40,142 bases of DNA from UHGV virus genome UHGV-0061378. The stretch is one strand, 5' to 3'. The notes under the pieces are model-generated. The model did not search any database, was not told the origin of the DNA, and saw nothing but the letters and a program-made list of their open reading frames with translations. Shown here piece after piece: positions 1 through 40,142 of the stretch (within the stretch, counting starts at the first letter, position 1; every line of letters starts with the position of its first letter). A program made the translations under genes and the position numbers. This DNA is from a virus.

Positions 1-49
1 TGACGGGTAAAAAGTGGATAAAATAATTTTACCCACCGGATTTTTACCC

Positions 50-1207
50 ATGCTCACCGTTAAGCAGATTGAAGCAGCAAAGCCGAAAGAAAAACCATAC
101 CGCCTTCTCGATGGTAATGGCCTGTACCTTTATGTCCCTGTATCAGGGAAAAAGGTATGGCAGCTTCGCTACAAGATTGACGGTAAGGAGAAAATCCTGA
201 CTGTCGGAAAATATCCGCTTATGACTTTGCAGGAAGCAAGGGATAAGGCATGGACTGCGAGGAAAGACATCTCGGTTGGCATCGATCCGGTAAAAGCGAA
301 AAAGGCTTCGTCTAACAACAATTCCTTTAGTGCGATTTACAAGGAATGGTACGAACACAAGAAGCAAGTCTGGTCAGTAGGGTATGCGACTGAACTTGCA
401 AAAATGTTTGATGACGACATTTTACCCATCATCGGCGGTCTTGAGATTCAGGATATTGAGCCGATGCAACTGCTGGAAGTAATCCGCAGATTTGAAGATC
501 GCGGTGCAATGGAGCGAGCCAACAAAGCCCGCAGAAGATGCGGCGAGGTTTTCCGTTACGCTATTGTCACTGGTAGGGCTAAATATAACCCGGCACCTGA
601 CCTTGCTGACGCCATGAAAGGATATCGCAAGAAGAACTTCCCGTTTTTACCTGCCGACCAGATCCCGGCATTCAACAAAGCACTGGCAACATTTTCAGGA
701 AGTATCGTATCGCTCATTGCGACCAAAGTTTTACGCTACACAGCCCTAAGAACGAAAGAGCTTCGCTCCATGCAATGGAAGAACGTCGATTTTGAAAACA
801 GGATTATCACTATCGACGCCAGTGTGATGAAGGGACGCAAGATTCATGTTGTCCCGATGTCGGACCAGGTGGTTGAACTTCTCACTACGCTAAGCTCCAT
901 CACTAAACCAGTATCAGAGTTTGTTTTTGCCGGGCGCAACGATAAGAAGAAGCCAATCTGCGAGAACGCGGTATTGCTTGTGATCAAACAAATCGGCTAT
1001 GAGGGTCTGGAAAGCGGTCACGGATTCAGGCATGAATTCAGCACAATTATGAACGAGCACGAATGGCCTGCTGACGCTATTGAAGTGCAACTGGCACATG
1101 CCAACGGCGGATCTGTGCGTGGAATTTACAACCATGCTCAGTATCTCGATAAGCGCAGAGAAATGATGCAGTGGTGGGCGGACTGGCTTGATGAAAAGGT
1201 TGAGTGA
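50..1207 (+). CDS. int: Tyrosine integrase, P4-like family
   Basis: Track ORF 14..1207 starts at GTG; first ATG at 50 gives N-terminus MLTVKQIEAAKPKEKPYRLLDGNGLYLYV, the typical P4-family integrase start. Sits beside the attP core and arm-type repeats. Confidence 0.85.
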   Translation: MLTVKQIEAAKPKEKPYRLLDGNGLYLYVPVSGKKVWQLRYKIDGKEKILTVGKYPLMTLQEARDKAWTARKDISVGIDPVKAKKASSNNNSFSAIYKEWYEHKKQVWSVGYATELAKMFDDDILPIIGGLEIQDIEPMQLLEVIRRFEDRGAMERANKARRRCGEVFRYAIVTGRAKYNPAPDLADAMKGYRKKNFPFLPADQIPAFNKALATFSGSIVSLIATKVLRYTALRTKELRSMQWKNVDFENRIITIDASVMKGRKIHVVPMSDQVVELLTTLSSITKPVSEFVFAGRNDKKKPICENAVLLVIKQIGYEGLESGHGFRHEFSTIMNEHEWPADAIEVQLAHANGGSVRGIYNHAQYLDKRREMMQWWADWLDEKVE

Positions 1208-39203: not shown

Positions 39204-39548
39204 ATGTCAGATTTGGCTATGAAAGTTTTGAAATGGCAATCGACTGGCGATGTTGGCATCAGTAGCGCAACTCTTGCCTCAATCGCATGTGGACTGAAAA
39301 ATAATATCTATGGTCATAGCTTCAGTGCTCCACATGACGCAGCTGATTTCCGGCGATGCGTTGCACTTGTTGAGCAGATTCCAGAAATCAGAGATTCATT
39401 CGACAAGGTTGCAAAGCGCGTTCCGGCATTCAAAGGCATCCTCAACGAATGGGATTCCCTCGTTGCTCTGTTGAAGTCTGAAATGAAGATACACGGAAAC
39501 AAAGCACCAGAGACTTACAGAAGAATCAGCGATCTACGCAAGGACTAA
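39204..39548 (+). CDS. Hypothetical protein
   Basis: 114-aa ORF followed by tandem terminators. Confidence 0.55.
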   Translation: MSDLAMKVLKWQSTGDVGISSATLASIACGLKNNIYGHSFSAPHDAADFRRCVALVEQIPEIRDSFDKVAKRVPAFKGILNEWDSLVALLKSEMKIHGNKAPETYRRISDLRKD

Positions 39549-39551
39549 CCC

Positions 39552-39580
39552 GCCTCACACTCGATGAGGCATTTTCATTT
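39552..39580 (+). terminator. Rho-independent terminator
   Basis: GCCTCA-CACTCGA-TGAGGC followed by ATTTTCATTT. Confidence 0.6.
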
Positions 39581-39605
39581 ATCAAGATATCCAGACCTAC
39601 CATCG

Positions 39606-39628
39606 CCGCATCAATGCGGTTTTTTATT
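39606..39628 (+). terminator. Rho-independent terminator (second of a tandem pair)
   Basis: CCGCA-TCAA-TGCGG followed by TTTTTTATT. Confidence 0.7.
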
Positions 39629-39637
39629 GCCTGATTT

Positions 39638-39653
39638 GCAGGTTCGATTCCCT
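39638..39653 (+). other. tRNA-Arg T-arm-like fragment (TTGCAGGTTCGATTCC)
   Basis: 16-nt match to the T-arm of tRNA-Arg(CCU)/argW as remembered; diverges afterwards and has no acceptor end, so not a functional tRNA. Confidence 0.5.
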
Positions 39654-39670
39654 ATTCGGAGATAGCACTC

Positions 39671-39871
39671 ATGCAACACGAACTACAACCTGATTCACTG
39701 GTTGATTTGAAATTCATCATGGCCGATACTGGCTTTGGTAAAACCTTCATCTATGACCGGATTAAGTCCGGCGACCTGCCAAAAGCCAAAGTTATCCACG
39801 GGCGAGCAAGATGGTTATATCGTGACCATTGTGAATTCAAAAATAAGCTCTTAAGCCGCGCCAATGGGTAA
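39671..39871 (+). CDS. AlpA/Xis-like DNA-binding protein (excisionase/regulator)
   Basis: 66 aa; last gene before the att region, upstream of int on the circular map; resembles AlpA-family proteins. Confidence 0.7.
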   Translation: MQHELQPDSLVDLKFIMADTGFGKTFIYDRIKSGDLPKAKVIHGRARWLYRDHCEFKNKLLSRANG

Positions 39872-39944
39872 AATAGCGGGTAAAATATTTTTCACATCTA
39901 AAAAACACCATTCCAATCAATCCCCTGCCGCGCCAAGTAGATGT

Positions 39945-39959
39945 CTGCAGGGGACACCA
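39945..39959 (+). other. attP core: identity with the 3' end of tRNA-Arg (CTGCAGGGGACACCA)
   Basis: 15-nt match to the argW acceptor 3' end including CCA, as remembered; between alpA/xis and int; flanked by GGGTAAAAA-type arm repeats in both orientations. Confidence 0.65.
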
Positions 39960-40142
39960 TTATTGTGTTTATCCCTAAAACCACGTAAAAACCGTAAATT
40001 ATTAAATTCGCACTAGCAGTGCCGAATAAGGCACACCAGGAACTCGTGGTCTTATTCATTATGAAGTGGTTTTTACCTGTTCTCTTAACCAAGTAATAAA
40101 TGCCTCAATTTTTGGCCACTGCCTGCCCGGTAATGTGGTGAT

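Follow-up and report, generated by a model that had tools for sequence, protein, structure and literature searches.

The att site near the right end of virus genome UHGV-0061378 is almost certainly the attR of an integrated HK620/Sf6/KplE1-type prophage, followed by a flank of host chromosome, as judged from comparison with occupied and unoccupied sites. From left to right, the end of the 40,142-nucleotide stretch analysed here (the window) carries torI, two predicted IntS arm-type sites, a conserved A/T-rich and CCCCTGC block, the 16-bp core and host DNA running into dsdC. The sequence CTGCAGGGGACACCA (39945..39959, + strand) was identical to nucleotides 61-75 of the annotated E. coli tRNA-Arg(CCU) gene argW, confirming the earlier claim that this 15-mer is the 3' end of argW; the reference was the tRNA-Arg gene adjoining intS in E. 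coli strain 7/2 (GTCCTCTTAGTTAAATGGATATAACGAGCCCCTCCTAAGGGCTAATTGCAGGTTCGATTCCTGCAGGGGACACCA). With the following T it becomes CTGCAGGGGACACCAT (39945..39960, + strand), the attR copy of the published 16-bp core of KplE1, HK620 and Sf6. The duplicated core of KplE1 is the same 16 bp (PMC2951348), and the 'attP core' annotations of HK620 and Sf6 denote an identical 16 bp. Identity between attP and attB extends to 39961, giving 17 bp with the present host allele, and a 17-bp duplication has been described for Kapi1 lysogens (PMC8787464). A single copy of the core was found within the window, where the 15-mer occurred once. An ARAGORN scan detected no tRNA genes in the window, hence the core is a tRNA fragment and not a gene. 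A scan of 39400..40142 against Rfam at E<=1 returned no match, and IMG/VR contained no exact copy of the core/host junction. A chance likeness to a tRNA 3' end, devoid of att function, would draw on nothing but the shortness of the match (15 nt) and was excluded: every base agrees, experimentally defined cores have the same sequence, and the flanks are a conserved P arm on one side and, on the other, precisely the host DNA found after argW. Related modules carry the core variants ATGCAGGGAACGCCA, ATGCAGGGGGCAAT and CTGTAGGGGACACCA (L105 and L107, Edwardsiella; L106, Pantoea stewartii; L104, Rouxiella), which presumably track species-specific 3' ends of tRNA-Arg(CCU). Wherever the core motif GCAGGGGAC was found, the distance from the start of the recombination directionality factor (RDF) gene to the core was 276 nt, with the exception of a partial Erwinia tracheiphila locus.

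Six att sites were anchored on the core and their flanks compared with the window, ungapped, over 90 bp to the left and 182 bp to the right. The attP sites of HK620 and Louie each matched at 86/90 positions on the left, and at 50/182 and 51/182, respectively, on the right, while attL of strain 7/2 agreed at 26/90 and 51/182. At the unoccupied argW-dsdC locus of STEC299 (attB), 26/90 positions matched on the left and the right flank was identical throughout (182/182). Both flanks were matched by attR of strain 98218 (89/90 and 179/182) and attR of phiv205-1 (86/90 and 178/182). A phage-type left flank joined to an attB-type right flank is the signature of attR, that is, P arm, core and the host B' flank as it stands at the unoccupied site; the contiguous P arm, core and P' arm of an attP were not found, since host DNA follows the core. 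The original prediction was therefore right in recognizing the att core of an argW-integrating phage, but the site is attR and not attP, as its right flank is that of attB and not that of HK620 attP. Similarly, its placement of att between alpA/xis and int holds for the circular form of the phage (torI-att-int), whereas the site present in the window is attR.

The host origin of the right flank was also evident in complete genomes. A synthetic attB query, consisting of argW joined to window positions 39960..40142, was recovered as one uninterrupted piece (258/258 identical) in prophage-free genomes, annotated there as tRNA-Arg followed by dsdC, and places covering at least 80% of this query occurred in 944 of 5,426 complete E. 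coli genomes. The segment 39500..40142 was found entire in 852 E. coli genomes, as torI followed by dsdC. Positions 39962..40142 (no strand assigned) constitute the B' flank, comprising the argW-dsdC spacer and the 3' end of dsdC, whose last 27 codons and stop (ITTLPGRQWPKIEAFITWLREQVKTTS) lie at 40059..40142 on the - strand and correspond to the C terminus of annotated DsdC. Among the phage matches listed (25 of 71), homology in records covering att, including HK620, Sf6, Kapi1, IME10, N7, Louie and others, ended at 39959-39961, and the other phage records matched only DNA upstream of torI. The sole record among those listed to continue further was phiv205-1, which is prophage-derived and itself annotates attR at this position. 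At near 100% identity over the whole window, neither a complete E. coli genome nor a phage record was found, only mosaic relatives with coverage of at most 74%. Because the attL side lies outside the window, we infer integration at argW from attR alone.

A different topology had been proposed, in which 39872..40142 plus 1..50 form one continuous attP of a circular or permuted genome linearised within att. The order torI (xis)-core-int is that of the HK620 and Sf6 attP, and arm-type repeats do lie close to both window ends, yet we find this arrangement barely credible: the right flank is that of the empty attB (182/182, against 50/182 for attP), dsdC codons lie inside the right end of the window, phage genome matches end at 39961, and the proximal 111 bp of the P' arm, with its five TorI sites and the -35 box of PintS, are all absent. 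In HK620, Louie and the attL of strain 7/2, the sequence found at window position 1 (TGACGGGTAAAAAG...) follows the core at a distance of exactly 111 bp, and this intervening P' segment is missing from the window. It reads ttatcaGTTCGctcc...accaGTCCG...cgcaGTTCGtaatgGTTCGcgtcaGATCGTTGACAgccgcactcca and is also given as TTATCAGTTCG...CGCACTCCA, with GGGGACACCA as the argW end; in the strain 7/2 lysogen, argW is annotated directly before it. These 111 bp carry all five TorI sites (GTTCG, GATCG and GTCCG, in two blocks) together with the PintS -35 box TTGACA, and P'1 overlaps the PintS -10 box TAAAAA (PMC2951348). The -10 box TAAAAA was found at window positions 8..13 and the -35 box belongs to the missing 111 bp, hence position 1 falls between the two boxes of PintS. 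Neither the five TorI sites nor the -35 box of the proximal P' arm was found in the window; the TorI-site block is absent because of where the window was cut, which does not indicate that the prophage itself lacks TorI sites.

The right boundary of the window lies inside host dsdC. Since 111 bp of the P' arm are absent and host DNA lies to the right of the core, the window ends are not contiguous, and the window is, on this comparison of sequences, a linear slice of a lysogen chromosome. Relative to the prophage, it falls short by 111 bp and the core on the attL side and exceeds it by 181-182 bp on the attR side. If 40142 were joined to 1, a fragment of dsdC would run directly into the PintS -10 box. 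The idea of a circular genome opened in the att region thus fails on the host DNA at 39962..40142 and on the missing 111 bp of P' arm, and the repeats thought to span the 40142/1 junction fall with it, because that junction is not real. Aberrant excision would yield exactly such content, namely an attR side with host DNA and an attL side with a deletion, if illegitimate recombination had produced a specialised-transducing-like genome that lost 111 bp of P' arm and the attL core and gained 182 bp of host DNA from the dsdC side. Such an event is nonetheless very improbable. The two ends share no microhomology or overlap (the host runs from GGTGAT into GTAATAATG, and the phage from CACTCCA before position 1 into TGACGGG), an element without TorI sites, core and PintS -35 box could neither integrate nor excise, and computational provirus calls typically have arbitrary cut points. 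The preferred reading remains that of an integrated prophage with a host flank, and we recommend that the record be corrected to this effect, that its ends not be joined and that its last 181 bp (39962..40142) be trimmed. In IMG/VR, the end of many provirus contigs that carry this module lies either 3 nt after torI or ~280 bp beyond, and provirus boundary calls around the module routinely miss or overshoot the att sites.

Arm-type repeats were identified on both arms. Across the whole window, GGGTAAAA occurred in six exact copies against 1.06 expected, a count reached in 0/100 shuffles, at positions 5 (+), 27 (-), 42 (-), 420 (-), 39866 (+) and 39878 (+). All coincide with HK620 repeat_regions annotated as attP repeats; this enrichment and placement agree with the earlier suggestion that the GGGTAAAA repeats next to int are arm-type sites of the integrase, and they are here taken as predicted IntS sites. 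On the P arm, two direct copies of GGGTAAAATA (39866..39875 and 39878..39887, + strand) overlap the torI stop codon, such that the true P-arm repeats lie at or just outside the left edge (39872) of the interval first assigned to att, and within them ATGGGTAAA and CGGGTAAAA were invariant in an ungapped alignment of 13 taxa. Positions 1..49 (+ strand) represent distal P' arm sequence, part of attL in the lysogen, and correspond to attP repeat_regions of HK620. The arm-type repeats of this stretch comprise GGGTAAAAA at 5..13 (+), which overlaps the PintS -10 box, GGATAAAA at 16..23 (+, one mismatch) and the GGGTAAAA copies at 27..34 and 42..49 (-). GGGTAAAAA (5..13) and TTTTTACCC (41..49) form an exact 9-nt inverted repeat. 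A TAAA motif occurs in the IntS P' sites of KplE1 (PMC2951348). The sixth exact GGGTAAAA copy (420..427, -) lies inside intS and, as the homologous position in HK620 is annotated as an attP repeat, is a putative site; it lies ~370 bp from the P' cluster, in a 15-nt, 87% complementary inverted repeat with 1..15.

The arm-like motifs originally listed on the two sides of the core fared differently: those at 5..13 and 41..49 were retained, while 39981..39993 (CACGTAAAAACC, more than one mismatch from GGGTAAAA) and 40068..40079 (GGTTTTTACCTG, one mismatch) proved to be host DNA. CACGTAAAAACC and GGTTTTTACCTG form an imperfect 12-nt inverted repeat with each other, both are unchanged at prophage-free argW-dsdC loci, and the second lies inside the dsdC coding sequence. 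Imperfect inverted repeats of the host (39982..39993 with 40068..40079, and 39977..39991 with 40059..40073) straddle the dsdC stop and the argW-dsdC spacer; they are unchanged at the empty attB and are unrelated to the phage. A direct repeat of GCCGCGCCAA (39855 and 39927) was not conserved in HK620 and was treated as chance.

The rest of the P arm (39888..39944, + strand), between the arm-type repeats and the core, includes the conserved block AATCAATCCCCTGC (39915..39928, + strand), which combines an IHF-like motif with TCCCCTGC. No exact IHF consensus was found in the att region, and the only site with one mismatch, at 39915..39927, is a candidate IHF site by its likeness to the consensus. 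In the ungapped alignment of 13 taxa, P-arm architecture was fixed as two arm repeats, a CA..CCCCTGC block, T.G..GT.TGCAGGG and the core, with CA..CCTGC invariant at fixed spacing. Beyond the core, attP sequences share ...AGTTCGC (TorI site I1), whereas attR sequences, including that of the window, diverge into host-specific DNA.

The genes for both recombination proteins were present. Adjoining the P' arm, intS (50..1207, + strand) encodes a P4-like heterobivalent tyrosine integrase of 385 aa that is identical to HK620 Int at 381/385 positions (99%) and contains the Pfam domains Arm-DNA-bind_3, Phage_int_M and Phage_integrase; homologues of 50..1207 are annotated as intS in E. coli genomes. 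Directly upstream of the P arm, torI (hkaC in HK620, gene 18 in Sf6; 39671..39871, + strand) encodes an RDF/excisionase of 66 aa that matches PDB 1Z4H, 'Tor inhibition protein', at 66/66 positions, and its end at 39871 overlaps the first arm repeat. Annotations of E. coli genomes name the gene torI. In KplE1, TorI serves as the excisionase; HK620 HkaC and Sf6 gp18 are identical to it, and the module is conserved (PMC3509656). The backbone, a mosaic of P22-like type, encodes portal, terminase, coat, ejection proteins and tailspike; the prophage is apparently complete at ~40 kb, and at most 52% of its first 25 kb was shared with any phage among the matches listed.

Upstream of torI, we found a second segment of argW. 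This tRNA T-loop-like box, TTGCAGGTTCGATTCC with the core (C)AGGTTCGATTCC (39636..39651, + strand), equals argW nucleotides 46-61 and lies 20 nt upstream of the torI start codon, with AGGTTCGATTCC ~28 nt upstream. Taken jointly, box and att core cover the final 30 nt of argW in the same order and on the same strand, 293 bp apart, with torI and the P-arm repeats between them. An argW match of 16 nt was reached in 0/200 random windows. Among 11 aligned taxa (~7 genera), GTTCGATT was invariant ~28 nt upstream of the starts of TorI-family RDF genes, with diverging flanks. Positions in individual relatives were 858-886 (L008), 866 (L011) and 871 (L012), and ~-28 from the RDF start in L097-L102 and L105-L107. 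Conservation was assessed in a species-level genome set, the IMG/VR loci related by RDF being 100%-identical copies only. The box was present in Salmonella phage Emek, with an RDF 49-52% identical, and in Erwinia phage phiEt88, with an RDF 36-39% identical and different arm and RDF-site repeats, as well as in Serratia, Pantoea and Edwardsiella prophages. Erwinia phage Midgardsormr38 carries two tandem copies, and Citrobacter and Enterobacter prophages the variant GGTTCGATTTC. Where the RDF gene abuts the upstream gene (Chronis, EhrS_49), the box was absent. Since it is conserved amid diverging flanks and absent where the RDF gene abuts another gene, the box looks selected and not like a neutral relic.

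Several functions were considered for the box. An RNA structure, pairing with torI codons or the Shine-Dalgarno sequence, was rejected, as minimum free energy z-scores in four taxa (-0.76, -1.10, -0.34 and +0.98) were not significant. A role as TorI operator, suggested by the GTTCG that the box contains, is unlikely and was weakened by phiEt88, which keeps the box while its P'-arm repeats are of another type (GATGTAACC). That the box may be a copy of the left half-site of attB, bound by the integrase, is compatible with all data. It overlaps a 'pI promoter / cII site' predicted in HK620 and Sf6. A sigma-70 promoter scan around torI yielded no promoter-like site on the + strand, and two terminator-like hairpins only. 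These hairpins have T-runs and lie just upstream of the torI module (39552..39570 and 39605..39620, + strand); the second ends ~15 nt before the box, near position 39616, where the conserved homology with the HK620/Sf6 module begins, and HK97 has a 'terminator' annotation at the corresponding position. This arrangement suggests that torI expression needs read-through or a promoter of its own; the torI promoter region was called uncharacterised in 2010.

The P arm contains a further core-like element, an inverted copy of GCAGGGG(A) 18 bp upstream of the core. There, TCCCCTGC (39921..39928, + strand) forms a perfect 8-bp inverted repeat with GCAGGGGA (39947..39954, within the core). The pair was kept at fixed spacing in 13 taxa, with 87.7% of cells complementary, and in Edwardsiella one two-sided change (C-to-T / G-to-A) tracked the host tRNA variant. 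Covariation evidence is thin, since most pairs never vary, and the TCCCCTGC/GCAGGGGA repeat may be either an extra core-type site or a hairpin. Both the box and the inverted copy were conserved in Escherichia, Erwinia, Salmonella, Serratia, Pantoea, Edwardsiella and Citrobacter, while flanks, RDF sites and arm-site sequences diverged. We tentatively suggest, as a possibility more doubtful than probable, that the two elements might be extra core-type sites of the integrase, resembling attB half-sites, that would tie RDF expression or the geometry of the intasome to occupancy by Int. Both are undescribed in the KplE1-module literature examined, and they may already be mapped in Panis 2007 (J Biol Chem 282:21798) or 2010 (Virology 404:41). 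The T-loop-like box is the only possibly new item and, if functional, would bear on the control of excisionase expression in a widespread module.

The recombination mechanism established for KplE1 and HK620 probably applies to the present prophage, given identities of 97-100%. In those systems, IntS recombines identical cores and binds arm-type sites through its N-terminal domain, TorI and IHF are required for the attL x attR reaction that yields attP, and the intS promoter, located inside attL, is repressed by both IntS and TorI (PMC2951348, PMC3509656). By analogy, the N-terminal domain of IntS would here engage the GGGTAAAA arm sites, and its C-terminal domains the core. During excision, TorI would occupy the five GTTCG/GATCG/GTCCG sites in the P' arm of attL and act with IHF. 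Recombination of attL with attR within the 16-bp identity would then restore attP and an attB in which argW is intact and followed by dsdC. As the core equals the tRNA 3' end, the phage supplies an identical 3' end and argW stays intact in the lysogen.

The site belongs to the argW module of KplE1, HK620, Sf6, CUS-3 and Kapi1, a system already known, and the window holds all the defining features of this module that it can show. Few heterobivalent integrase systems are listed as fully characterised, and the argW module is one of them (bioRxiv 10.1101/2023.11.06.565760); because the att system of KplE1 is fully characterised, the core and the arm repeats add nothing new. KplE1 (CPS-53 of E. coli K-12) shares the core CTGCAGGGGACACCAT, the argW...dsdC locus, an identical TorI, an orthologous IntS, and an arm-type motif with TAAA whose P'1 copy lies over the PintS -10 box, as here. 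It is, however, a 10.2-kb remnant, whereas the prophage bordered by the present module is P22-like and, at ~40 kb, apparently complete, and the window, unlike KplE1, is without the part of attL that bears the TorI sites. HK620 attP (AF335538) matches in its P arm (86/90), has an identical core and an identical distal P' arm (window 1..40), and encodes an Int identical at 381/385 positions and an HkaC that is TorI; its P arm, core and P' arm are contiguous, with 111 bp after the core, whereas in the window host DNA follows. Sf6 and Kapi1 have the same core and xis-att-int order, and the lysogen junctions of Kapi1 lie between yfdC and dsdC (PMC8787464), but their backbones are different mosaics (tailspike, early genes), sharing 43-52% of the first 25 kb. 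The attR of lambda likewise combines arm-type and core-type sites and undergoes RDF- and IHF-dependent excision between hybrid attL and attR junctions. Unlike in lambda, int and the RDF gene of the KplE1-type module lie on opposite sides of attP (PMC2951348), and thus at opposite ends of the prophage, intS has its own promoter in attL, the RDF sites are confined to the P' (attL) arm, and the target is a tRNA 3' end (PMC2951348).
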